Below are positions 9,025-30,581 of a stretch of 64,000 nucleotides of DNA, piece after piece (positions within the stretch are counted from its first letter, which is position 1; every line of letters starts with the position of its first letter). Both the position numbers and the translations under genes were made by a program. Below the pieces are notes generated by a model. That model was not told where the DNA came from. It did no database searches and saw only the letters and a list, made by a program, of their open reading frames with translations. This DNA comes from an uncultured Steroidobacter sp. (GTDB lineage Bacteria; Pseudomonadota; Gammaproteobacteria; Steroidobacterales; Steroidobacteraceae): assembly GCA_937958065.1 (NCBI GenBank), contig CALFXI010000058.1, positions 17,487 through 81,486 on the forward strand, given 5' to 3'.

Positions 9025-10089
9025 TCAGCGCACCCACAAGGTCGGCTTGGCACTGTTCGCAGTGACCGAGCCGATCCTGGACGCGTGCTCGAAACCATGG
9101 TGCTGGAACGTCGCCAGCACCTCCTGCACTGCCGACGGCGAGCACGACACCAGCAGTCCACCGCTGGTTTGCGGATCGGTGAGCAGCGCCTGATCTTCGG
9201 CCGCAAACGACGGCGGCAAGCTCACTTCGGCGCCATAACCGGACCAATTGCGGCCCGACGCGCCGGTCACAAAACCTTGCGACGCCAGTTCACGCACGCC
9301 GTTCAATAAAGGGACGGCTGGCCACTCGATCTCCAGGTCGCAGCGCGCACCTCGCGCCAACTCCAACGCATGGCCGGCAAGGCCGAACCCCGTCACGTCG
9401 GTGAGTGCATGGACCCCGGAAAGCGCGGCAAGCTCGGGCCCTGGAGTGTTCAACTGCGTCGTGGTCGTCATCATCCGCTGGTAACCTGCCGGATCGAGCG
9501 CTCCTTTCTTCAGAGCGGCAGACAACACCCCGACACCCAGCGGCTTGCCCAGCACCAGCGCGTCGCCTGGCTGCGCATCCGCATTTCGTTTGATACGGCC
9601 GGGATGAGCGAGCCCCATCACGACCAGGCCGTAGATCGGCTCGACCGAGTCGATGCTGTGCCCGCCCGCAATTGGAATGTTCGCGGCACGACACACCGAG
9701 GCGCCGCCTTCCAGAATTTGCCCGATCGTCGTGGGTGAGAGCACATTGATCGGCATGCCGACGAGCGCAAGCGCCATGATGGGTCGACCACCCATCGCAT
9801 AGACGTCGCTGATCGCATTGGTCGCAGCGATCCGGCCGAAGTCGAAAGGATCGTCGACGATGGGCATGAAGAAATCGGTGGTCGCGATCAGCGCCTGCTG
9901 GTCGTTGAGTCGATAAACCGCTGCGTCGTCGGATGTTTCCAGGCCGACCATCAGCTCGGTGGGCATCGGCAGCGCGGCCGTGCCTTTGAGAATCTGCGAC
10001 AGCAGCCCCGGCGCGATCTTGCAGCCACACCCCCCTCCATGTGACAACGAGCTGAGACGCGGCTCGACCGACTTTTCGGGTGGCTTCAT
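9025..10089 (-). CDS. selD: Selenide, water dikinase (selenophosphate synthetase), Cys form
   Basis: HGGGCGCKI, DDAAVY, TTDFFMPIVDDP, DVTGFGLAGH, DPQTSGGLL; ATGA overlap with selA stop. Confidence 0.97.
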   Translation of the reverse strand: MKPPEKSVEPRLSSLSHGGGCGCKIAPGLLSQILKGTAALPMPTELMVGLETSDDAAVYRLNDQQALIATTDFFMPIVDDPFDFGRIAATNAISDVYAMGGRPIMALALVGMPINVLSPTTIGQILEGGASVCRAANIPIAGGHSIDSVEPIYGLVVMGLAHPGRIKRNADAQPGDALVLGKPLGVGVLSAALKKGALDPAGYQRMMTTTTQLNTPGPELAALSGVHALTDVTGFGLAGHALELARGARCDLEIEWPAVPLLNGVRELASQGFVTGASGRNWSGYGAEVSLPPSFAAEDQALLTDPQTSGGLLVSCSPSAVQEVLATFQHHGFEHASRIGSVTANSAKPTLWVR

Positions 10090-11492
10090 GACAATCCCTT
10101 CGCGGCAAGCTGGCCGAGTTGGGCAACGAACCCCTGCTCATCCTCCAGACAGCGCAGATCGAGCACCAGCGCATCGTCGGCGACCCGACCGATGACCGGG
10201 ATCGGCAACTGGCGCAGATCGCGCGCCAGACGTTTCAGGGCCGAGCCGACTCTGGCGGTCGTGGGCCGACACGTCAGCGCCCGGCTCGGAATGACTTCGA
10301 TGGGCAGCGAGCCGCTGCCGACCTGGCTCGACACTGCAGTCACATCGACTTGCCACTGCGTTCCGAGCGCGGCGGCCAGATGCGGCAGCACTCGGTTCGC
10401 AAGCGCTTCGATGTCGTCGGCCGAGCGCGTGAGCAAACGTAACGTCGGCAGTTCCTGCAACAGCAGATCGGGCGTGCGATACGCCAGCAACGTTCCTTCG
10501 AGCGCCGCAAGCACAGGCTTCGATACACGCAACGCACGCTTCAGAGGATGACGTCTGATTTTGTCGAGCAATGCCTTCCTGCCGACGATCAGACCGGCTT
10601 GCGGCCCGCCGAGCAACTTGTCGCCACTGAACGTGACCACGTCGGCGCCGCTCGCAATGGTTTCCCGCACCACCGGTTCCTTGGGCAACCCATATGCAGA
10701 GAGGTCGATCAGACTGCCCGCGCCCAGATCGACGAGCAGAGGCAGCTGATGCTCGTGTGCAATATGAGCGACTTCTGCCTCCGGCACCTGGGCCACGAAG
10801 CCGCTGATCTTGTAATTGCTCATGTGCACTTTCATGAGCGCCGCCGTCTTCGGACCGATGGCTTGCCGGTAATCGCCGGGATGGGTGCGATTCGTCGTGC
10901 CGATCTCGATCAGCCGCGTATTGGCACTGCGCATCACATCGGGAATGCGGAACGCACCGCCGATCTCGACCAACTCACCGCGCGACAGTACGACCTCGCG
11001 CTTGTGCGCCAGCGCCGCCAGCACGAGCAGCACTGCGGCTGCATTGTTGTTTACTACAGTGGCGGCTTCCGCGCCGGTCAGCTCGGTGAGAATGTTTTCG
11101 ACCAGACTGTCGCGCTCGCCTCGCCCGCCGCTTTCCAGATCGAATTCGAGATTGCAGGGCTCGCGCATCGCCATCGAGGCGTGCTCGATGGCGCGCGAAG
11201 ACAGCTGCGTTCGACCCAGGTTCGTGTGAAGCACGGTCCCGGTCAGATTGAACACGCGTCGCAGCCGAGGGGTGGCGCGCTCCTGCAGACGCTCCGTGAT
11301 TCGACGCGTCAGCTCGTTATCGCTCGGCCAGGAAAACCCGGGCTCATGCCGATGCGCGCGATGCTCATCGAGCACCGCTCTGATCGCATCGATCACTGCG
11401 CTGCGGCCATACGTCTCGCACAGTGTTGCTACGGCCGCGAAGCGCGCGATGCGATCGACGGAAGGAAAAGGATTGGTGGGCTGGGTGGCCAT
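10086..11492 (-). CDS. selA: L-seryl-tRNA(Sec) selenium transferase
   Basis: RRVFNLTGTVLHTNLGR, VNNNAAAVLL, SRGELVEIGGAFRIPDVM, PLP-lysine motif FSGDKLLGGPQAG; start reassigned to ATG 11492. Confidence 0.97.
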   Translation of the reverse strand: MATQPTNPFPSVDRIARFAAVATLCETYGRSAVIDAIRAVLDEHRAHRHEPGFSWPSDNELTRRITERLQERATPRLRRVFNLTGTVLHTNLGRTQLSSRAIEHASMAMREPCNLEFDLESGGRGERDSLVENILTELTGAEAATVVNNNAAAVLLVLAALAHKREVVLSRGELVEIGGAFRIPDVMRSANTRLIEIGTTNRTHPGDYRQAIGPKTAALMKVHMSNYKISGFVAQVPEAEVAHIAHEHQLPLLVDLGAGSLIDLSAYGLPKEPVVRETIASGADVVTFSGDKLLGGPQAGLIVGRKALLDKIRRHPLKRALRVSKPVLAALEGTLLAYRTPDLLLQELPTLRLLTRSADDIEALANRVLPHLAAALGTQWQVDVTAVSSQVGSGSLPIEVIPSRALTCRPTTARVGSALKRLARDLRQLPIPVIGRVADDALVLDLRCLEDEQGFVAQLGQLAAKGLS

Positions 11493-11629
11493 GGATCCAA
11501 ATCCCCGAGATCGCTGTAGCCTAGCACGCACTCGACATCGTTGGCCTGCCGTGCCTCGAACGCCGGACGGCGCGCTAGCTTTTCACTACCGGCTGGACAA
11601 GCCCGCCGGGCCAACTGCACCATAGTCCC

Positions 11630-11723
11630 GGAAGAGAAACATCCCCGGCGGGGTGCCCGGACTTCAAACCCGGAGGAAGGTGCCACGCACCTTCGGTAGG
11701 TTCGACTCCTGCCTCTTCCGCCA
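11630..11723 (+). tRNA. selC: tRNA-Sec (anticodon UCA), 7/5 fold
   Basis: GGAAGAG-AAA-CATCCC CGGC GGGGTG-C-CCGGA CTTCAAA CCCGG-AG-GAAGGTGC CAC GCACCTTC-G-GTAGG TTCGACT CCTGC-CTCTTCC-G-CCA: 6-bp D stem, UCA anticodon, long variable arm, G73, encoded CCA. Confidence 0.95.
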
Positions 11724-11724
11724 A

Positions 11725-12351
11725 TCACTGCTTTGGCTCAGGCACCGAGCTGCGCTCGCGATCGGGATCCTCCATGCCCTCGAACAGATCGCCCCGGGCC
11801 GGCGGCGGCTTGCCTATCCCACATCCGAAGAAGCCGAGACCGACGGCGCAACGATCCCCCACTCTGACGTAGGGCAATCCGCCCGAGAAGCCTGCCTTGG
11901 GCGGTGCCCATTTGAATTCAGGCTGCGGCTTGCACTCGGGTAATGCAGGATCGGCGAGCCCGGTGGAGTCGCATTTGCTTCGATCAGGCACCGGCATCTT
12001 TTCCGCAGCCGCTGCTGCGGCTCGTCGCGCCTCTTCGCTCCAGTTGATGGATGGCGCTGTCGTCGAGCCCGCCGGCACAGATCCCTCCGAGGGCTCGACA
12101 GTGATGGCGCTGGACACGTGGACGGTAATGTCTGTCTGTATCCGAGGCTCTGCGAGCGGACGCAGCTCTTGCTGAGCTCTGAGCCCGGTTACCGGCGTGC
12201 GTGGAAAGAACAGCAACGTGCGCTTGATACTTCCCTCTTCTTCATCGTACTCGCGCAGTTTCAGATCCAGCGGCACCATCAGCAATAGCACGTGTGCACC
12301 GGCCACCAGCACCAGAATGGCGAAGCGACGCAGACGTTGATCGTTAGCCAT
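11725..12351 (-). CDS. Hypothetical membrane-anchored Pro-rich protein with 4 C-terminal Cys
   Basis: N-terminal hydrophobic segment FAILVLVAGAHVLLLM, Pro/Ser-rich linker; no family recognised. Confidence 0.6.
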   Translation of the reverse strand: MANDQRLRRFAILVLVAGAHVLLLMVPLDLKLREYDEEEGSIKRTLLFFPRTPVTGLRAQQELRPLAEPRIQTDITVHVSSAITVEPSEGSVPAGSTTAPSINWSEEARRAAAAAAEKMPVPDRSKCDSTGLADPALPECKPQPEFKWAPPKAGFSGGLPYVRVGDRCAVGLGFFGCGIGKPPPARGDLFEGMEDPDRERSSVPEPKQ

Positions 12352-17965: not shown

Positions 17966-18403
17966 TCAGGACGGCCGTTGCGACAGCTCGAGCCGCAGCC
18001 ACGCGCGGGCGTGGGTCCATTCGCGCTTCACGGTGTCGTGGGAAAGGCCGAGTGCCCGAGCGGTTTGTTCGATCGTGAGTCCGCCGTAGCAACGCATGGC
18101 CACGATTCGCGCCTGGCGCGGGTCCAGCGCTTCCAGACGCGACACCAATTCATGCAATGCCTCCCCATCCTCGAGTATTTCCGCGCGTGAGAGGACGCTG
18201 GCTCCCTGGGGACGTCGATCCTTCGCGCGAGCAGCACGAAACTGGCGCATGGCCGTCGCCGCAAGAGCGAAGAACTGCGCCCGCTCCTGCCAATCGATGG
18301 GAGGCGGCGCGCCTTTATCTCGCGGCCTGCGTCGCACGGTACGGACCCCTGAACCCTTCGCCACGTGCTTCCGGCGAACGCAGCAAGGTCGATTCAGCCA
18401 CAT
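17966..18403 (-). pseudogene. N-terminally truncated ECF sigma factor (TIGR02999-like)
   Basis: IDWQERAQFFALAATAMRQ and LDPRQARIVAMRCYGGLTIEQTARALGLSHDTVKREWTHARAWL retained; most of region 2 is absent in all three minus frames. Confidence 0.7.
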
Positions 18404-20465
18404 TCGGCAGGGCGATGATCCGGCCCGCCATGGCGATGGTGTCCGGACGATGCGCGATGATGATTCGGGTCAGCGACAGCGACTGCACGGCTTCATTCAC
18501 GCCGCGCTCGCAGGTGACGTCGAGGTGGCTGGTGGCCTCGTCGAGCGCCAGGATCTTCGGCTGTTTGTACAGCGCGCGAGCCAGCAGCACCCGCTGCTTC
18601 TGCCCTCCGGAGAGCGCATCGCCCATGTCGCCGATGAGCGTGTTGTACCCCATGGGCATGGCCACGACATCGTCGTGAATCACCGCGAGCCGGGCGCACT
18701 CCTCGATGCGCGCCTGGTCGGCATTGACATCGAAGAAACAAATATTGTCGGCGATGGAGCCGGCGAACAGCTTGTCCTCCTGCATGACCGCGCCAATGAG
18801 ATCGAGATGCGCAGGGGCCAGCTGCGCGACGCTCACTCCGCCGATCAGCACCTCGCCTTCAGTCGGCGCGAGCAGGCCGAGGATCAGCTTGAGCAGCGTC
18901 GTCTTGCCGCAGCCCGACGGGCCAACGATGGCCACGGACTCACCAGCGGCAATCTTGAAGCTCACGTCATGGAGCACCGGCGCGCTGAAACTCGAGTAAC
19001 GGAACGTGACATTGCGAAACTCGATGTCCGGAACCAGTGTCGACGCGATCTCGTTCGTTCCGGTGGACTCAGGCTCCGCGAGTGCAATGTCGGCCACGCG
19101 CTCGGCGTGCAGTCCCAGCATCCGCAGCTCGACGGCCTTGTCGATGAATGCACCGATGCGAGTGACAAAGGTTATCTTGAACGACACGAACGCAAATAGC
19201 ATGCCGACCGTGAGCTTCGCATCCAGCACCAGCAGCGCCGCCAGCCAGATCACGGCGATGTTTTCGATGCCGAACAGCGCGCCGTTCAGCGCCCGATACA
19301 GAATGTCCAGCCGCTCGGTGCGAATCTCGGCGTTGAAATTACGAACCAGCAGGTTCTCGTGCATGGTGCGCCGCTGCGACTGGCGATTGAACAGCTTCAC
19401 GCTCTGGATGCCGCGGATGGTCTCCAGAAAGCTGCTCTGCTGATTGGCAGCGTGCGCGATCTGCTCCTGCTGAGCGTCGAACAGCGGGCGATACAACGCG
19501 GCCCGCAGCAATGCATAAAGAACAGCGGCCACGCAGACGATGGCGGTAAGCAGGCCGCTGTAGGCAAACATCACGGCGAGTGTCAGGAGCGCCATCAAGC
19601 CGTCGACCAGCGCCGCGACGAAGCTCGAGGTGAGCGTGCGCTGGATCACGTTGAGCGACTCGAAACGCGACGACAGATCGCCGAGATGGCGCTTCTCGAA
19701 GAACGTCATCGGCAGGCGCAACAGATGCGCGAACAAGTTGCTCACCATCTGCGCGTTCAGGCGCGTTCCCAGCACCATCAATACCCAGGAGCGCGCCGCC
19801 GTGACGCCGACCTGGATCAGCGCAATCAGCAGGAAGCCCAGCCCGAGCACGGTGATCAGATCCCGATCCGCCGAGACGATGGCGTTGTCGACCACCAGCT
19901 GAGTGAAAAATGGCGCCAGGATGGTGAGCACTTCGAGCGCCAGCGCCATGCAAAAGATCTGCAGCAGCGTGCCCTTCATGCCGCGGAAACGGCCCAGCAG
20001 CTGGAACACCGAGACTTGCTGACGATCCCGCAGCGGCTGGAACTCTTCGAGCCGCGACAGCTCCAGGCACACGCCGGTGTAGTGCGGTGACAGCTCGGCC
20101 AGCGTGAGCACTCGCTGACCGCAGGCAGGATCGTGAATGACCGCACGACCGCCGCGCATTTCCGCCAGCACGACGAAGTGATTGAAGTCCCAGTGCAGGA
20201 TCGCCGGCAGGGTCACGCGTGGCAGCGCTTCGAGCTCCACCTTCACCGGCCGCGAGCCGAGTTGCAGCTGACCCGCCACTTGCATGATGTGCGCCAGCGT
20301 CGCGCCCTGCATGGACAGAGAGTAGCGACGGCGCAGCGCTGCGAGATCGATATCGTGACCATGATACGCGGCGACCATCGCCAGACAGGCGAGCCCGCAT
20401 TCGGCGCCTTCTGTCTGCAGCACGACTGGCGTGCGTCGTCTGCCCGAGAAGTTGAGCTGGATCAC
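18315..20465 (-). CDS. Peptidase-containing ABC transporter (C39-TMD-NBD; CvaB/RaxB-like)
   Basis: QTEGAECGLACLAM (catalytic Cys), LHWDFNHFVVL (His), IHDPA; Walker A GPSGCGKTT, LSGGQ, ILALDE. Confidence 0.95.
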   Translation of the reverse strand: MIQLNFSGRRRTPVVLQTEGAECGLACLAMVAAYHGHDIDLAALRRRYSLSMQGATLAHIMQVAGQLQLGSRPVKVELEALPRVTLPAILHWDFNHFVVLAEMRGGRAVIHDPACGQRVLTLAELSPHYTGVCLELSRLEEFQPLRDRQQVSVFQLLGRFRGMKGTLLQIFCMALALEVLTILAPFFTQLVVDNAIVSADRDLITVLGLGFLLIALIQVGVTAARSWVLMVLGTRLNAQMVSNLFAHLLRLPMTFFEKRHLGDLSSRFESLNVIQRTLTSSFVAALVDGLMALLTLAVMFAYSGLLTAIVCVAAVLYALLRAALYRPLFDAQQEQIAHAANQQSSFLETIRGIQSVKLFNRQSQRRTMHENLLVRNFNAEIRTERLDILYRALNGALFGIENIAVIWLAALLVLDAKLTVGMLFAFVSFKITFVTRIGAFIDKAVELRMLGLHAERVADIALAEPESTGTNEIASTLVPDIEFRNVTFRYSSFSAPVLHDVSFKIAAGESVAIVGPSGCGKTTLLKLILGLLAPTEGEVLIGGVSVAQLAPAHLDLIGAVMQEDKLFAGSIADNICFFDVNADQARIEECARLAVIHDDVVAMPMGYNTLIGDMGDALSGGQKQRVLLARALYKQPKILALDEATSHLDVTCERGVNEAVQSLSLTRIIIAHRPDTIAMAGRIIALPNVAESTLLRSPEARGEGFRGPYRATQAAR

Positions 20466-20472
20466 CGGTGGC

Positions 20473-21750
20473 TCACATGCGCCTGGTCACCGACTGCAGC
20501 GGCTCGATCGCCCACTCGATCAAACGGCGGCGCTCCAGCGACAGGGACGCATCCAGCTGCATGCCCGCCTGCAGAGGAAAATCCATCGCCCTGGTGTTCA
20601 CCTGCTGTGAGGCCAGCCGCACCGTCACACGATAGAACGGCTCGGTGGCCTGCACCGGCAGATCCAGCTCTTCGGGCGCCATCAATGTGCGGGCGATCTC
20701 GACGATCTCGCCGTTGAAGCTGCCGAAGCGCTGATACGGAAACGCCTGGTAACGCAGCCACACCCGATCGCCGATGTCGATGAAGCCGATGGAGCTGCTG
20801 GGCACGAGCAGCTTGGCCTGCAGCTCCGCATCCTTCGGCAGGATGGCGAGCAGCGAGGTGCGATCGGTAACGGTCTGGCCGATCTCGCCGGCAATCGCGG
20901 TGACGGTGCCGTCCGCCGGCGCAGTGATCACGATCGAGCGACGCGACTGATACTCGGCCCGCTCCTGAGCCAGCGCCAGGGTTTCGCGCTCGATCTCCGA
21001 CAGACGCTGACGCGCGCTGATCTCGGTGGTCGCGAGCTCCTGACGATGCGCCTTGATGTCACGCTCGAGTTGAGTCCGACTGCGACGCAGCTCCTGCAAT
21101 CGCGCCTGCTGTTCCAGACTCTCGGCGTACTTCTGGTCCGCGTCGAGCTGCGATACGAAATGGCGTTCGAGCAATTCGGCATGGCGACGAGCGATGCGTT
21201 CGGCGCTGGCGGCACGCTCCCTCTGCAGCGCAATCGAATCGTCCAGTTCCCGCAGCTCGCGTTCCTGGCTGATCAATGACTCCCGCAGCGAGCTGGCCTG
21301 CACGGTCGCGAGCTTCTGCTGATCGGCACGCTCGGCTTCCAGATTCTTCAAGCGCTGTTCGAGCTGCGCGATGGCGGTCGCCTGAGTCTCGGCAAGCTGC
21401 GTCGACGCGCCCTCCGGCGATACGACGAACAGCTCGTCACCACGACGGACGGCCTGGCCTTCGGAGACCCGGCGCTCCACGAGCGTTCCGGCGAGCGGGG
21501 CATACACTTTGATGAGGCCGGCACTCGGTGCGAGATAGCCACGCACCTCCGCCTTGCGCGCCAGCTCCCCGAAGCAGGCGAACAGCACCAGCGCGAGGAC
21601 GATGCCGACCGAGATCGCCGTCAGGCGCGGATAAGAAACCGGATGCGCCGCCAGCGACTCACCGACCAAGGACAGTCGGCGAGCATCGATGGCTTCCTGA
21701 CGGAACAGCGTGCTGCGGGGACCACCGCGGGGTGTGTTGACGGGCTCCAT
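20473..21750 (-). CDS. HlyD-family membrane fusion protein (CvaA/RaxA-like)
   Basis: LFRQEA N-terminus, single TM, long coiled coil, ITAPADGTV, AFPYQRFG, LQAGMQLDA. Confidence 0.92.
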   Translation of the reverse strand: MEPVNTPRGGPRSTLFRQEAIDARRLSLVGESLAAHPVSYPRLTAISVGIVLALVLFACFGELARKAEVRGYLAPSAGLIKVYAPLAGTLVERRVSEGQAVRRGDELFVVSPEGASTQLAETQATAIAQLEQRLKNLEAERADQQKLATVQASSLRESLISQERELRELDDSIALQRERAASAERIARRHAELLERHFVSQLDADQKYAESLEQQARLQELRRSRTQLERDIKAHRQELATTEISARQRLSEIERETLALAQERAEYQSRRSIVITAPADGTVTAIAGEIGQTVTDRTSLLAILPKDAELQAKLLVPSSSIGFIDIGDRVWLRYQAFPYQRFGSFNGEIVEIARTLMAPEELDLPVQATEPFYRVTVRLASQQVNTRAMDFPLQAGMQLDASLSLERRRLIEWAIEPLQSVTRRM

Positions 21751-21852: not shown

Positions 21853-23898
21853 TCAGTTCTTCTCGCGTTCGAGCACGGCTTTGACGGCCGCGACGACGCG
21901 CTCGGGCACGAACTCGAAATAGCGCATCAGGTCCTTGGCCGGTGCCGATTCGCCAAATCGATCGATACCCACCACGGCACCACGGCGACCGACATACTTG
22001 CGCCAGAAGTCGGGCACGCCTGCTTCGACGGCGACACAGGGCAGCTCGAAGGGCAAGACTCGTTCGCGATATTCGGGATCCTGGCGGTCGAACGTCGTGG
22101 TCGAAGGCATCGACACGACGCGAACCGGAATGCCTTCCGCCTCCAGCGTCTTCTTCGCCTCGACCGCGAGCGCAACTTCCGAACCGGTCGCAATGATCAC
22201 GGCGCGCGGCCTGGCGTGCGGCTCAGAGAGCACATAGCCGCCACGGCGGATGTTTGCAATCGTGTCCGGGTCGCGCTCCTGGAACGGCACGTTCTGACGA
22301 CTCAGCACCAGGCTGGTCGGCCCATTCGTCCGTTCGATGGCCGCATCCCAGGCGACCACGGTTTCCAACGTGTCGCATGGCCGCCAGACGTCCATGTTCG
22401 GAATCAATCGCAGCGTCGCGACATGCTCGATGGGCTGATGCGTCGGGCCATCCTCGCCCAGACCGATCGAATCATGGGTGAACACGAAAATCGAGCGGAC
22501 GCCCATCAGCGCGGCCATGCGCAGCGCGTTACGGCAGTAGTCCGAGAACGTCAGGAAGGTCCCGCCATAGGGGATGAATCCGCCGTGCAGCGCCAGCCCA
22601 TTCATGATCGCGGCCATGCCGAACTCGCGCACGCCGTAATAGATGTAGTTGCCGCCGCTCTTGCCGGTGACGGCGTGCGATCCCGACCATAACGTGAGGT
22701 TCGAGCCAGCGAGGTCGGCCGAGCCGCCGATCAACTCCGGCAGGGTCGGCGCGATCCCTTCGAGGGCCTCCTGCGAGGCCTTGCGTGTCGCGATGGACGC
22801 AGCTTTAGCTTGCGTACGTGCCATCAGTCTGCGGATGTTCTCAGCGAACTCCTCCGGCAATGAGCCCCGCATGCGGCGCTCGAACTCTTCGCTCAGTTGC
22901 GGGTGAGCCGTCGCATACGCCGTCAGCTTCTGTTGCCACTCTTCCTCATAGATCGAGCCCGCATGATGGGCATCCCACAGCTCGTAGACGTGTTCGGGAA
23001 TCTCGAAAGCGCCGTAGTTCCACCCCAGTGCGGCGCGCGTGGCGGCCACTTCTTCCTCACCCAGCGCAGCGCCATGAGCATCGTGGGTGCCGGCCTTGTT
23101 CGGCGCTCCCTTGGCGATGACGGTCTTGCAACAGATCAGCGACGGTCTGTCAGGCACCGCCTTCGCGGCGCGAATGGCGTCGTCGACGGCGTCGCTGTCG
23201 TGCCCATCGACGTCGGGCACGACGTGCCAGCCGTAACTTGCAAAGCGTCGCGGCGTGTCGTCGGTGAACCAGCCCGAGACATGGCCGTCGATCGAGATGC
23301 CATTGTCATCGTAGAAAGCGATGAGCTTGCCGAGGGCGAGCGTACCGGCGAGCGAGCAGACTTCGTGCGAGATGCCTTCCATCATGCAACCGTCGCCGAG
23401 GAATACATAGGTGTAATGATCCACCACCTCGAAGCCAGGACGATTGAATTGCGCCGCGAGCACTTTCTCCGCGATCGCCATGCCCACGGCATTCGCAATC
23501 CCCTGCCCCAGCGGTCCGGTCGTCGTCTCCACGCCGGGAGTAACGCCGTACTCCGGATGGCCCGGCGTTCGCGAATGCAACTGACGGAACCGCTGCAGCT
23601 GTTCCAGCGGCAAGTCGTAACCGGTCAGATGCAGCAGCGAGTACAGCAGCATCGAGCCATGCCCGTTCGAGAGCACGAAGCGGTCGCGGTTGAACCACTC
23701 CGGGTTCGCGGGGTTGTGGCGCAGATGACGTTGCCAGAGCACCTCGGCAATCTCGGCCATGCCCATCGGCATGCCCGGATGGCCCGAGTTGGCCTTTTGC
23801 ACGGCGTCCATCGCCAGCGCACGCAGCACGTTGATGCCTTCCTGGCGCGGCCCCAGAGTGCGAGGCTTGGAGCGTTGCACGTCGAGCTCGGCGCTCAT
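21853..23898 (-). CDS. cbbT: Transketolase
   Basis: [56 protein letters not shown]. Confidence 0.97.
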
Positions 23899-24608
23899 GG
23901 GATTGCCCTCAATGCACGAGTCCCGCTGCGGGGACGCACACTCAGCTCCATGATCTCCTTCAGGTTGCTGACGATGGCGTCCGGCCGCAATTCCTCCAGC
24001 GGCTGATCGCGGTGATAGCCATAGTCGACCGCCACCACACGACAGCCCGCGGCGTGCGCCGCCTGGATGTCGGTCCGCGAATCGCCGATCAACAGCATGT
24101 CGGCGGGCTCGACCTCGCTCAGCGAACAGGCCGAATACAGCAGTGACGGACTCGGCTTTCTATCCTCGGGGCGCGCCGGACACAGCACCGCCGCGAAGAA
24201 CCCGCTGATGCCGGCCAGCTCCAGCAAGGCATGAGCGAACCTGCGCTCCTTGTTCGTCACGCAACACAGGGTGAGCCCGAGCGTACGCAACGTGTGCAAT
24301 GTCATCAGCACATCGGGATACAGACGCCCGCGCTGGAACACGCGTTGTCCGTACAGATCCCGAAACAATGCGGCCGCCGTCTCGTGCAAGTGCCCATCCG
24401 GCATCACGCCGCTTCGAGTCAGCACCCGCTTGACGAACTCATCGATGCCTGCGCCGATCAGCCCGGGAATCTGCTCGTCCGGCAGCGGCCGGCCGCCGAG
24501 CATGACCAGCATCATGTTGGCCGCCGCGCCCAGATCCGGCGCGGTGTCGATGAGCGTGCCATCCAGATCGAATGACACGGCGGCGACGCAATCGAGGAGT
24601 TTCGGCAT
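23895..24608 (-). CDS. cbbZ: Phosphoglycolate phosphatase (HAD)
   Basis: [28 protein letters not shown]; within the cbb operon. Confidence 0.9.
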
Positions 24609-24620
24609 GACGACCTCACA

Positions 24621-25544
24621 TCAGAACGTCGGTTCCAGAAATGCCTGGGTGGAGCGCTGTGATTTGCGCGCCAGCGATTCCCTGCGCCGCTCGATCAGGC
24701 GCAGAATCATCGGCGTGAAGATGAGCTGCATGGCCAGATCCATCTTGCCGCCCGGGCACACGATGGTGTTCGGCCGCGACATGAACGAGTCGTGCAGCAT
24801 CGCGAGCAGATACGGAAAGTCGATGCCGTGCGGACTGGCAAAGCGGATCACCAGAAACGATTCGTCGGGTCTCGGAATGAAACGCGCGATGAACGGATCC
24901 GACGTGTCCACGACGGGAACGCGTTGAAAATTGATGTGCGTGCGGGAGAACTGCGGGCAAATGTAGTGCACGTAGTCGTGCATCCGCCGCAGGATGGTGT
25001 CCGCCACCGCCTCCGTCGAATAACCGCGCGTGGAACGATCGCGATGCAGCTTCTGAATCCATTCGAGATTGATGACCGGCACCACCCCGATCAGCAGATC
25101 GACATGCTTCCAGATCTGAATGTCTTCGTGCGCCGCGGCGCCATGCAGCCCCTCGTAGAACAGCAGGTCCGTCCCCTCCGGCAGCTCCTCCCATTCGGTG
25201 AACGTGCCGGGCGGCTGTCCATACGGCGCGGCCTCCTGATCGTCATGCAGATATTTGCGCCGCCGCCCCTGTCCGCTCTCGCCATAGCTTCTGAACAAAC
25301 CGTCGAGCTCGGCGAACAGATTCGCGTCCGGGCCGAAGTGACTGAAGTACTGATCGCCACGCGCAATGGCATCGGCCATCTGCTGTTTCATGCCGGCGCG
25401 ATCATAGCGATGGAAGCTGTCGCCTTCGACGAACGCGGCCGTGAGGGCCTCGCGCCGGAAGATCTGCTCGAACGTCTTCGACACCGAGGTCGTGCCGGCG
25501 CCGGACGAGCCGGTGACTGCGATGATGGGATGTGTGGCTGACAT
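24621..25544 (-). CDS. cbbP: Phosphoribulokinase
   Basis: HPIIAVTGSSGAGTT, EGDSFHRYDR, YEGLHG, NLEWIQKLHRD, FQRVPVVDTSDPF. Confidence 0.97.
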   Translation of the reverse strand: MSATHPIIAVTGSSGAGTTSVSKTFEQIFRREALTAAFVEGDSFHRYDRAGMKQQMADAIARGDQYFSHFGPDANLFAELDGLFRSYGESGQGRRRKYLHDDQEAAPYGQPPGTFTEWEELPEGTDLLFYEGLHGAAAHEDIQIWKHVDLLIGVVPVINLEWIQKLHRDRSTRGYSTEAVADTILRRMHDYVHYICPQFSRTHINFQRVPVVDTSDPFIARFIPRPDESFLVIRFASPHGIDFPYLLAMLHDSFMSRPNTIVCPGGKMDLAMQLIFTPMILRLIERRRESLARKSQRSTQAFLEPTF

Positions 25545-25554
25545 GGAGGTTTGC

Positions 25555-26625
25555 CTATGCGGGATTTCTGAGCACGCTGCGAGTGCCGAACAACGGCGCC
25601 TTGAACTCGAAATCGTTGCACTCGCGGTGATAGCGCTCGATGCGCTCGACCTCCGCGCGTGCGCCGAATATGAAACCGATGCGTTGATGCAGGCTGTCGG
25701 GCTGGATGGTCAGCACCGGCTCCCGGCCCGTGCTGGCGCGCCCGCCCGCCTGCTCGATCAGGAAGCCGAGCGGATTGGCCTCGTACAGCAGGCGCAGGCG
25801 GCCGGGCTTGGTCAGGTCCCTGCGATCGCGCGGATACATATAAACGCCGCCACGCATGAGAATGCGATGAGCTTCGGCCACCACTGCGGCCACCCAGCGC
25901 ATGTTGAAATCGCGACCGCGCGGACCCGAGGCTCCTTCCTGGCATTCGTGCACGTAGCGCTTGATGGGAGATTCCCAGTACCGTGAATTGGATGCATTGA
26001 TGGCAAACTCCGAGGTGGTTTCCGGAATCCGCAGATCCGGATGGGTCAACATGAACTCGCCGATCTCTCGATCGAGCGTGAAGCCGTGCACGCCTCGCCC
26101 GGTGCTCAGTACGAGCATGGTGGACGAACCATAGATGGCGTACCCGGCGCAGACCTGTTCGATGCCCCGCTGTAAAAAATGCTCCTCGGACGGGTCCGTG
26201 ACGCCTTCAGGACAGCGCAGCACGGAGAAGATGCTGCCAACGGCGGCATTCACGTCCACGTTCGAGGAGCCGTCCAGTGGGTCGAACAGCAGCAGATACT
26301 TGCCAGTGGGATACTCCGCCGGAATGGCGTACGGCTTTTCCATCTCTTCGGACACCATGCCCGCGAGCTGGCCGCCCCATTCGTTGGTGCGGATGAAAAT
26401 ATCGTTGGCGAGCACATCGAGTTTCTTCTGCACCTCGCCTTGAACGTTGACCACTCCCGCATCTCCATAGGCGCCCGACAGCGCGCCCTTGCCGATGAGC
26501 GTCGCGATCCGCTTGCAGGCGAGTCGCACATCGTTCACCAGTGCAGTGAAGTTGCCGGTCGCGCCCGCGTGGCGGCGCTGCTCCTCGATCAGGAATCGGG
26601 TCAACGTTCTCGGCGCGAGCGTCAT
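25555..26625 (-). CDS. cbbF: Class 1 fructose-1,6-/sedoheptulose-1,7-bisphosphatase
   Basis: [36 protein letters not shown]. Confidence 0.96.
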
Positions 26626-27545
26626 GGATGCAATTCTCCCTGTCGTTCTGCAGGTGGGGGCTCGGCGAACACGCGGCTGGCCCGGATGTCCGCCGCTTCG
26701 ATGGTCATCAGATCGTTCTTTGCGAGCGACGTGTCACGCCTGCCGAACAAGCGGCTGGCTTGCCGCAACCGGGCGCGGTCCAGCGCATTGCGAATGGATC
26801 GGGCATTGGCGAAGTGCGGCAGGGCCTGGCGACGCTCTATATATTCCTCCAGCGCGGCCCGAGCCTCGGGGCTCAGCGTGTATTGCATCTGCTCGAGCAT
26901 CAGATCCGCGATGGCCAGCAATTCCGCGGGGGTGTAGTCCGGAAAAGCGATGTGATGCGCGATGCGCGAGGACATGCCTGGATTGCTGCGGAAGAAACGA
27001 TCCATGCGGTCTTCGTAGCCGGCCAGGATGACCACCAGATCGTCGCGATGGTTCTCCATCTCCTGCAGCAGGATTTCGATCGCCTCCTGCCCGTAGTCGC
27101 GCTCGTTCTCCGGCCGATATAAATAGTAGGCCTCGTCGATGAACAGCACCCCGCCCATGGCGCGCTTGAGCACTTCGCGTGTCTTCGGCGCGGTGTGGCC
27201 GATGTACTGGCCGACGAGATCGTCGCGAGTCACCGCGACCATGTGACCTTTGCGAACGTAGCCGAGTCGATGCAGGATCTCGGCCATGCGCAGCGCGACG
27301 GTGGTCTTGCCGGTACCCGGATTGCCGGTGAAGCTCATGTGCAGCGAGAGAGCTTCGGTGCTCAAGCCGGCCTGTCGACGCAGCGTGTCGACCAGCAGCA
27401 GTGCGCAGATGTCACGAATGCGCGTCTTCACCGGCGCGAGGCCGACCAGCTCGCTGTCGAGCTGATCGAGCACGTCGGCGACATGAGAGTCGCGGAACGC
27501 GGCGTCGAGGTTGAAGTCGTCAGCGGTTTTGGGGACGGAATTCAT
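26622..27545 (-). CDS. cbbX: CbbX red-type RubisCO activase (AAA+)
   Basis: [51 protein letters not shown]. Confidence 0.96.
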
Positions 27546-27569
27546 CGACGAAGATCCTCGCGGCGCTGC

Positions 27570-27986
27570 TCAATACCGATGCCCTTCCGGCCGTCGCGTC
27601 GCGTACGAGCGCAACGCATATCTCACCAGTCGTCCCGGCCCTTCCTCACGCAGCAATTCGAAGCCAGGCTCTTCCTGCGGCCGCGCCACGATGAACGACA
27701 GGCGCAGCGATTCGATGCCCCGCGTCGAGTCGAACGCATTGACCTTCACGTACCGATTCGGGAAAGTGCGCCGGCACTCGTCCACTTCTCGCATGATGCC
27801 GGCGGCGTCCTTCAGATCGAACATGGGAATGCCGAACATTTCCCAATACGTGTTGCGGGGATGCGGATCCTCGGTGTGCTCCACGGACACGGCCCAGCCG
27901 CGCTGCAGGCAGTACTCGATCTGCGAGCTGATCTGCTGGTCGGTGAGGTCCGGAAGAAATGAGAAAGTGCCTTGAGTGAGTCGCAT
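27570..27986 (-). CDS. cbbS: RubisCO small subunit, red-type
   Basis: [26 protein letters not shown]-terminal beta-hairpin extension EPGFEL.REE. Confidence 0.96.
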
Positions 27987-28018
27987 GACTGTGCTCTCGC
28001 GTAGGAATATCGAGCGGC

Positions 28019-29572
<1,554 letters not shown>

Positions 29573-29577
29573 TCAGA

Positions 29578-29592
29578 ATAAGATTCTCTTAT
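29578..29592. promoter_or_regulatory. CbbR (LysR) recognition site
   Basis: ATAAG-ATTCT-CTTAT dyad containing T-N11-A in the cbbL/cbbR divergent gap. Confidence 0.75.
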
Positions 29593-29627
29593 TTAGCGCA
29601 ATGGGGATCCGGTTCGCTGGAGTCGCC

Positions 29628-30581
29628 ATGCGGAACATCACTTTGCGGCAGATGCGCGTGTTCGCGTCGGTGGCGCGCTATCGCTCGTTCACCAAGGCCG
29701 CGCGCGAGCTGCATCTCACGCAACCCGCGATCTCACAGCAGATCAAGCAGCTCGAAATCGAAGTCGGACTGCCGCTGCTCGAACACGTCGGGCGACAGAT
29801 CCATCTCACCGCGGCCGGCGATGAGCTGTTGCGTTACGCATCCCAAGTCACCGAATTGCTGCGTGAGGCGGGCGAATCACTCGCGGCGATGCGCGGCCTG
29901 AAACGTGGCGTGCTGAAACTCGGCGCGGTCAGCACCGCGAAGTATTTCGCGCCCTCGCTGCTCTCGGCGTTCGCGCCTTCTTATCCGGAAGTCACGATCC
30001 ATTTCACGGTGGGCAACCGGGAAGAAATCATTCAACAGCTCGCGGCCAACGAAACGGATCTTGTCATCATGGGCCGACCGCCACGCGAGCTGATCACGGT
30101 CGCCGAGCCGTTTGCGAAACATCCATTGGTCGTGATCGCATCGCCCAATCATCCGCTCGCCGGCAAGCGACGCATTCCGCTGGAGCGTTTGGGCAGCGAG
30201 AGCTTCATCATTCGCGAGGAAGGCTCCGGAACCCGTGCGTCGATGGAGCACGTGTTCAGCAAGCGGGGCGTGCCGATCCGCGCCTCCATGGAAGTCAGCA
30301 GCAACGAGACCATCAAGCAAGCCGTGATGGCCGGCATGGGCATCGGCTTCATTTCCATCCACACCGTGGGCCTCGAGCTCGCCGCCGGCAAGCTCGTGAT
30401 CCTGAACGTGACCGGCCTGCCGCTGATCCGCGACTGGTTCGTGATCCACATGCGCGACAAACACCTGTCGCCGATCGCGGTGGCGTTCCGCAGCTTCCTG
30501 CTCGAGAAAGGTGCGGCGATCATTCATAAGACAGCGGAAGAGAGCCGGTCCATTCTGCGGGCCATTCCCGCCCAACAATAG
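29628..30581 (+). CDS. cbbR: LysR-family regulator CbbR
   Basis: TLRQMRVF..SFTKAARELHLTQPAISQQIKQLE; STAKYFAP; divergent from cbbL; GGAG RBS before ATG 29628. Confidence 0.95.
   Translation: MRNITLRQMRVFASVARYRSFTKAARELHLTQPAISQQIKQLEIEVGLPLLEHVGRQIHLTAAGDELLRYASQVTELLREAGESLAAMRGLKRGVLKLGAVSTAKYFAPSLLSAFAPSYPEVTIHFTVGNREEIIQQLAANETDLVIMGRPPRELITVAEPFAKHPLVVIASPNHPLAGKRRIPLERLGSESFIIREEGSGTRASMEHVFSKRGVPIRASMEVSSNETIKQAVMAGMGIGFISIHTVGLELAAGKLVILNVTGLPLIRDWFVIHMRDKHLSPIAVAFRSFLLEKGAAIIHKTAEESRSILRAIPAQQ

Follow-up and report, generated by a model that had tools for sequence, protein, structure and literature searches.

The window, by which is meant the whole 64-kb stretch of DNA that was analysed, contains a selenocysteine (Sec) locus in which selC, the gene for tRNA-Sec, is divergent from an overlapping selA and selD, with the 3' end of an otherwise deleted selB in the gap between them (Table 1). 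When the full 64 kb was submitted to ARAGORN, the sole tRNA called was a tRNA-SeC with anticodon tca at position 35 of the gene, and the Rfam family RF01852 matched positions 11630-11719 with 65.2 bits (E = 5e-11), above its gathering score of 47. The product of the adjacent selA is identical to P0001, shares 89% identity with the SelA of S. cummioxidans and 83-85% with those of S. agaridevorans, S. flavus and Peristeroidobacter soli, and is homologous to the SelA structures deposited as PDB 8uzw and 3w1h; its PLP-lysine motif FSGDKLLGGPQ is intact, and all 11 of the SelA proteins from the clade were likewise intact with the PLP lysine kept. The identities to these SelA proteins assign the window to a Steroidobacter-like gammaproteobacterium.

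Table 1. Features of the sel locus, in window coordinates
Feature	Position	Strand	Description	Basis
selD	9025..10089	-	Selenophosphate synthetase, Cys form, motif GGGCGCK; 4-nt overlap with the end of selA	Pfam AIRS, AIRS_C; translation
selA	10086..11492	-	L-seryl-tRNA(Sec) selenium transferase, 468 aa, divergent from selC	Pfam PF03841 (E = 8e-155), PF12390
selB 3'-end remnant	11589..11625	+	...RLDKPAGPTAP* (last 11 codons)	88% identity across 52 nt with the terminus of S. agaridevorans selB
Putative selC promoter	11594..11623	+	TGGACA (11594-99), 18-nt spacer, CACCAT (11618-23)	Conservation across ten Steroidobacter-clade genomes
selC	11630..11723	+	tRNA-Sec(UCA) gene, 94 nt with encoded CCA	ARAGORN; Rfam RF01852; fold; covariation (62 sequences)
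Acceptor 5' strand	11630-36	+	GGAAGAG	Sequence; 7 contiguous Watson-Crick pairs with CTCTTCC
Acceptor-to-D linker	11637..11639	+	AAA, 3 nt	Sequence; acceptor stem without bulge
D arm		+	CATCCC-CGGC-GGGGTG, 6-bp stem and 4-nt loop	Sequence
Anticodon arm	loop 11662-68	+	CCCGGA-CTTCAAA-CCCGG-[A]-G, 7-nt loop CTTCAAA	Sequence
A31.C39 mismatch	11661, 11669	+	Closes the anticodon loop	Sequence
Anticodon	11664..11666	+	TCA, reads UGA	Sequence; ARAGORN
Bulge 43a	11674	+	A, 3' side of the anticodon stem	Sequence
Variable arm		+	GAAGGTGC-CAC-GCACCTTC, 8 bp and 3-nt loop, then 1-nt spacer G	Sequence
T arm	11696 onward (with acceptor 3' strand, 11696..11719)	+	GTAGG-TTCGACT-CCTGC, 5 bp including U50.G64	Sequence
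Acceptor 3' strand	11713-19	+	CTCTTCC	Sequence; directly 3' of the T arm
Discriminator	11720	+	G73, followed by CCA	Sequence

The features on which an initial annotation had based its assignment of an unusual tRNA-Sec, namely a 7-bp acceptor stem with a 5-bp T stem, an AAA linker and an A.C mismatch closing the anticodon stem, were all present in the sequence. The covariance-model check proposed at the same time returned the match to RF01852 reported above and no 8-bp acceptor: the alignment deleted one acceptor pair (one position per side) and flagged the next as non-canonical, so that an eighth pair is without support from the model. The distance from T-loop to G73 is 12 nt, as against 13 nt in 8/5 relatives, and therefore no 13-bp acceptor/T stack is possible whether the branch is drawn as 7/5 or as 6/6; the gene thus has 7 + 5 pairs where the criterion for bacterial tRNA-Sec is 13 (8/5). 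The minimum-free-energy fold drew the same 12 bp as 6/6 (z = -3.2), the two drawings being inseparable by covariation because no variation is seen at G7, at C66 or at the G preceding the T stem. By comparison with the 8/5 relatives, the 3' acceptor strand lacks one nucleotide, and the first A of the linker (7a) is the former 5' partner of the lost eighth pair, now unpaired. The selC of E. coli shares with that of the window the UCA anticodon, G73, a long variable arm and C at position -1; in both the D stem is of 6 bp with a loop of 4 nt, and the T stem of 5 bp carries a TTCGACT loop. The E. coli gene, however, pairs A31 with U39, is without the 43a bulge and has a linker of 2 nt, and its 8 acceptor pairs bring the branch to 13 bp.

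The same tRNA recurs well beyond the window. A SelA-based scan with one genome per species yielded 16 loci, among which a 7-nt 3' acceptor strand and a 3-nt linker were confined to the three from Steroidobacteraceae and to that of a further gammaproteobacterial MAG, the canonical 8 nt with a 2-nt linker being found in Acidovorax, Ancylobacter, Ensifer, Rhodospirillales and the remainder; set out by sequence, the strand is of 7 nt in five (the window, L001-L003 and L011) and of 8 nt in ten 8/5 relatives. Six more Steroidobacter-clade loci reached via their SelA proteins carried the same tRNA, and the architecture proved common to ten Steroidobacter-clade genomes. Metagenome contigs were searched with the pattern TTCGACTCCNNNCTCTTCCG, which covers the T-loop, the 5-bp T stem, the 7-nt acceptor strand and G73, and returned at least 120 matches, of which at least 70 were full tRNA-Sec genes of 7/5 type, none having a linker shorter than 3 nt; the term rare, originally applied to the 12-bp form, is not borne out by these numbers. 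G73 was also present in genome loci found outside the pattern search. Two matches with odd anticodon loops (L044 and L057) proved to be ordinary tRNA-Ser(UGA) genes in tRNA arrays and were set aside. Four others (L086, L090, L092 and L131) are 7/5 tRNA-Sec genes with the anticodon loop CTTCAAC, that is, with C38 and not A38.

The possibility that the gene is a canonical 8/5 tRNA-Sec whose 7-nt 3' strand reflects a sequencing or assembly error, which the initial annotation had named as grounds for withdrawing its claim and which nothing favours except that 8/5 is the textbook form, is excluded, because many independent genomes carry the 7-nt strand: the 12-nt distance from T-loop to G73 recurs in the genomes of four isolates (S. 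agaridevorans, S. cummioxidans, S. flavus and P. soli), several MAGs and 62 distinct sequences overall, the ten Steroidobacter-clade genomes are alike, and the Rfam alignment itself requires the deleted pair.

An alignment of the 62 distinct 7/5 sequences was used to assess the fold, the acceptor stem and G73 being fixed in it by the search pattern so that acceptor covariation is uninformative. The linker was of at least 3 nt in 62/62, and 96.4% of cells in the cloverleaf paired, as against 84.7% in shuffles, with a covariation score of 0.392 compared with 0.179 for shuffles and ~0.07 for slid partners. Changes on both sides were recorded for all six D-stem pairs, all eight variable-arm pairs, four of the six anticodon-stem pairs and the outer T-stem pair (49:65; GC 57, UA 3). 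The adjoining pair 50:64 was UG in 32 sequences and UA in 26, with C-G in P. soli, and pair 27:43, counted with the bulge skipped, was C-G in 59/62. A tally of 60 unique tRNA sequences gave A.C at position 31:39 in 11, and in the 62-sequence alignment this position otherwise covaried (CG 17, AU 13, GC 11, UA 8). Throughout the Steroidobacter clade A31.C39 is fixed, P. soli and S. flavus adding a G30.U40 pair.

A tRNA of this kind is not without precedent. Santesmasses, Mariotti and Guigo (2017) described 47 bacterial tRNA-Sec with a 12-bp AT-stem (PMC5330540), and their account includes, for Gammaproteobacteria, a 7/5 fold with the extra linker nucleotide 7a ('S2 Fig column D') and gives bulge 43a as common to most of the 12-bp set; still earlier reports of 12-bp tRNA-Sec are cited in PMC5389517 and PMC4607533. 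The window selC has the features of that subclass: the 7-nt 3' strand, the extra linker nucleotide without an acceptor bulge, and the bulged 43a. It differs in context, selC usually lying in a selABC operon in the 12-bp class of PMC5330540, whereas in the window it is divergent from selA-selD and selB is deleted; A31.C39 also finds no mention in the passages of that paper on the 12-bp class. No Steroidobacteraceae are named in the text of PMC5330540, the species names looked for were absent from the supplements searched, and a literature search for Steroidobacter together with tRNA-Sec found no paper linking them. The window tRNA-Sec is accordingly a family-level addition, Steroidobacteraceae, to a published 12-bp class, subtype included, and not a new class. 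The original proposal that the class extends to a new lineage thus holds for the family, the exact subtype having been published already in 2017 (PMC5330540).

Other tRNAs with comparable branches are readily distinguished. The (8/4) tRNA-Sec, selC* tRNA-Cys and 8/4 or 9/3 allo-tRNAs of Mukai et al. (2017; PMC5389517) share with the window a 12-bp branch and tRNA-Sec-like D and variable arms, but attain it with a longer acceptor and a shorter T stem (8/4, 9/3), some with a bulge 51a, whereas the window tRNA keeps a 5-bp T stem and has a shortened acceptor. The mycobacterial 7/6 tRNA-Sec (PMC13449736, 2026) likewise has a 7-bp acceptor, but retains 13 bp by means of a 6-bp T stem, an arrangement impossible in the window selC because only 12 nt lie between T-loop and G73.

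That a SelA accepting a 12-bp tRNA-Sec is known, as the initial annotation had stated, is documented in the literature (PMC5389517, PMC10778597, PMC6267555): current systems for SECIS-independent Sec insertion are built, together with allo-tRNA, on the SelA of Aeromonas salmonicida, an enzyme whose own tRNA-Sec is of 12 bp (PMC10778597, PMC6267555). Both this pair and that of the window combine a gammaproteobacterial SelA with a tRNA-Sec of 12-bp branch. The compensating indel in SelA that had been anticipated was not found: an alignment of 5 proteins from 7/5 hosts with 11 from 8/5 hosts, and spacing measured on 30 SelA proteins, revealed no indel separating the two groups. The distance from the N-terminal PSVD to the core FNLTG is 71 residues in the window clade and in three 8/5 hosts alike, and the ranges overlap (66-74 in 7/5 hosts and 70-76 in 8/5 hosts).

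A scan with a strict sigma-70 consensus found no promoter before the window selC. Comparison of ten Steroidobacter-clade genomes nevertheless revealed two conserved boxes separated by a variable spacer, present whether or not they lie inside selB coding sequence, for which the clade consensus is TGGACA-N18-CA(C/A)CAT-N6-G(+1). The geometry of these boxes predicts a transcription start at -1 or +1 (G+1 = 11630). A survey of the 50 nt before selC in 64 distinct leaders of the 7/5 class extended this pattern: a TTG-like -35 element was visible, A at -12 and T at -8 marked a -10-like hexamer that ends at -8 in 29/64 and at -7 to -9 in 40/64 (at -7 in the window clade), and position -1 was C in 45 and T in 13 (pyrimidine 90%, C 70%). 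The TATAAT box of E. coli selC, by way of contrast, ends 33 nt upstream of +1, as against 7 for the window box.

This preference at -1 raises the question of whether the mature tRNA begins at C-1 and pairs it with G73 in the manner of tRNA-His, giving an 8-bp acceptor and a branch of nominally 13 bp. Among the 62 class members, 42 have C and 14 have U at -1, so that 90% could pair with G73, and C is found at -2 in only ~20%. E. coli selC, however, also has C at -1, and yet in the published description of its mature tRNA-Sec the discriminator G73 is unpaired and the 8-bp stem makes no use of -1 (PMC13449736). Moreover, such a pair would leave the 3' strand one nucleotide shorter, so that the CCA end would reach no further, and a pyrimidine at -1 with the -10 box at a fixed distance fits equally well the preference of start sites for pyrimidine(-1)/purine(+1). 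A C-1:G73 pair is for these reasons judged very improbable; the fixed distance of the -10-like element and the pyrimidine at -1 are an unexplained regularity, and constitute no evidence for a leaderless tRNA or for that pair. Metatranscriptome contigs of a marine relative (L073), considered as a source of 5'-end information, stopped at the 3' end of the tRNA and ran upstream past +1, giving no 5' end and leaving a leaderless transcript unsupported.

The more unusual point of the locus, an unexpected one and one that the initial annotation had passed over, is not the type of tRNA but the recurrent loss of selB with retention of selC, selA and selD. selB adjoins selC in nearly all of the 7/5 loci with context, and in L001, L139, L145 and L088. 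In S. agaridevorans (L001) its frame spans 660 codons from a GTG, or ~650 aa from the likely ATG (L001 3953-5935), is divergent from selA and ends 5 nt before selC, and in S. flavus and two metagenome relatives it is laid out in the same way. In the window the remaining ~2 kb of the gene is deleted, and the 137-nt gap between selA and selC (11493-11629) consists of the selA-selB intergenic region, ~45 nt of other sequence and the selB remnant. The window-type joint corresponds to L001 3964->5997, with 2032 nt skipped, and recurs in contigs from three metagenome runs that are independent of one another, which establishes that the deletion is no assembly artefact; the same junction is common to the window and S. 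cummioxidans. Runs in which the window sequence occurred were of soil, compost and plant DNA only.

Within the group as a whole selB has been kept in S. agaridevorans, S. flavus, L088 and L145, and deleted or truncated in the window and seven relatives (L002, L137, L138, L141, L142, L143 and L144), the remnants differing in size. In P. soli and a close relative the deletion is internal and has left a C-terminal ORF of 83 or 64 residues, and in three other selB-less lineages the distance from selC to selA is 72-158 nt. In a tree of SelA proteins S. flavus, with selB intact, is sister to P. soli (100% bootstrap), and the window groups with S. cummioxidans (99%); given these positions of selB-intact S. 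flavus and selB-less P. soli, selB must have been lost at least twice. Every one of the deletions spared the 37 nt in front of selC. A 1080-nt soil contig (L034) bears a Steroidobacteraceae-like locus in which selB is reduced to its first ~48 codons, and its tRNA-Sec has a U7.C66 mismatch at the seventh acceptor pair; this may be a real case of decay.

Neither a SelB-type GTPase nor a gene for formate dehydrogenase or any other recognisable selenoprotein was found in the 64-kb window. Of the 120 best homologues of the SelB of S. agaridevorans (at least 47% identity, any more distant selB falling outside this list), none was named for a selB-less species or located on the large contigs of one, and the only isolates named were S. 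agaridevorans and S. flavus. One candidate for a relocated selB (P0125, a close SelB homologue without a matching SelA contig) was found to sit in the usual sel locus.

Such findings invite the view that a selenocysteine trait is in the course of loss and that the locus is its relic, selC and selA having been non-functional leftovers since the deletion of selB. The varied sizes of the selB remnants in the eight affected loci, the 64-kb window without a visible selenoprotein gene, and the partial selB and mismatched tRNA of L034 are in its favour. Rates of substitution point the other way: selA dN/dS was 0.109 at dS 0.52 between the window and S. cummioxidans, the pair that shares a deletion junction, and 0.078-0.129 in other selB-less pairs of comparable divergence, so that the values for selB-less lineages (0.07-0.13) match the level of selB-bearing pairs (0.075-0.100). 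A very close selB-less pair, P. soli and L141, gave 0.175 at dS 0.017, and selD values were 0.09-0.12. The tRNA is nearly invariant, with three differences between the window and S. cummioxidans that disrupt no pair, and at most three positions differing among the species compared, always in a bulge or as wobble or compensatory changes; furthermore, the 37 nt upstream of selC are intact in every deletion. selC, selA and selD are therefore, as judged by comparison of their sequences, under purifying selection without decay despite the loss of selB, and a relic is considered improbable.

The explanation preferred, and held to be quite probable, is that the window carries a functional selC of the described 12-bp class (7/5, 7a, 43a) at a locus from which selB has been deleted, SelB as the delivery factor most likely being encoded elsewhere in the genome of the organism. 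[quoted passage not shown] In relatives that bear selB, namely S. agaridevorans, S. flavus and almost the entire wider 7/5 class, the SelB encoded just upstream of selC would deliver the product to UGA codons accompanied by a SECIS element. In the window genome selB has gone from the locus, with the 37-nt promoter-like stretch before selC spared.

An alternative that is unlikely, yet deserves to be kept in mind for the selB-less lineages, is that the 12-bp Sec-tRNA-Sec is in natural use without SelB, either by way of EF-Tu, whose preference is for branches of 12 bp, or in a role outside ribosomal decoding, as a donor of tRNA-bound Sec. The independent loss of selB on at least two occasions, with selA, selC and selD retained under purifying selection, is consistent with such a role, as is the lack of any relocated close selB among the best 120 SelB homologues. 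A 7-bp acceptor stem, moreover, switches E. coli tRNA-Sec from SelB to EF-Tu (PMC7609411, where the result is cited from Baron and Bock 1991). Against this, genes of the window end in TGA more often than in any other stop codon (20/38 genes), which argues against a general EF-Tu-delivered suppressor of UGA, such a suppressor being costly; the tRNA is essentially alike in selB-bearing and selB-less species; and a distant selB (<47% identity) could lie elsewhere in the genome.

Should SelB be encoded elsewhere in the selB-less genomes, as the preferred explanation supposes, the system would be an ordinary one, whereas a genome with none would imply a non-canonical role for tRNA-Sec. The occurrence of selB-bearing species (S. 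agaridevorans and S. flavus) beside close relatives that are selB-less (S. cummioxidans and P. soli) provides a natural experiment on 12-bp tRNA-Sec without SelB. Taken alone, the tRNA adds Steroidobacteraceae to a published structural class, one that is abundant in soil and marine metagenomes, and the Steroidobacter clade offers several natural pairs of SelA and 12-bp tRNA-Sec from cultivable isolates, beyond the Aeromonas pair used for Sec recoding.

Several other features of the neighbourhood were recorded. A conserved protein of ~208 aa is encoded at 11725-12351 (-), ending 2 nt from the 3' end of the tRNA; it has a hydrophobic stretch at its N terminus, several conserved Cys and no Pfam match, and S. 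cummioxidans and L144 have it too. Positions 18315-21750 (-) encode an ABC exporter, which carries a C39 peptidase domain at its N terminus, and a HlyD-type partner, the two being of the bacteriocin- or peptide-export type. A Calvin-cycle (cbb) cluster at 21853-30581 comprises genes for transketolase, a HAD phosphatase, phosphoribulokinase, FBPase, a CbbX-like AAA protein and the large subunit of RuBisCO (28019-29488), together with a divergent LysR regulator, and suggests CO2 fixation in a Steroidobacter-like bacterium; cbb genes lie near selA in L144 also. Among the loci of Ancylobacter, Ensifer and Xanthobacteraceae (L008, L009, L010 and L015), the selB frame runs through the entire tRNA-Sec gene, nested selC genes of Alphaproteobacteria having been described already (PMC8124441).
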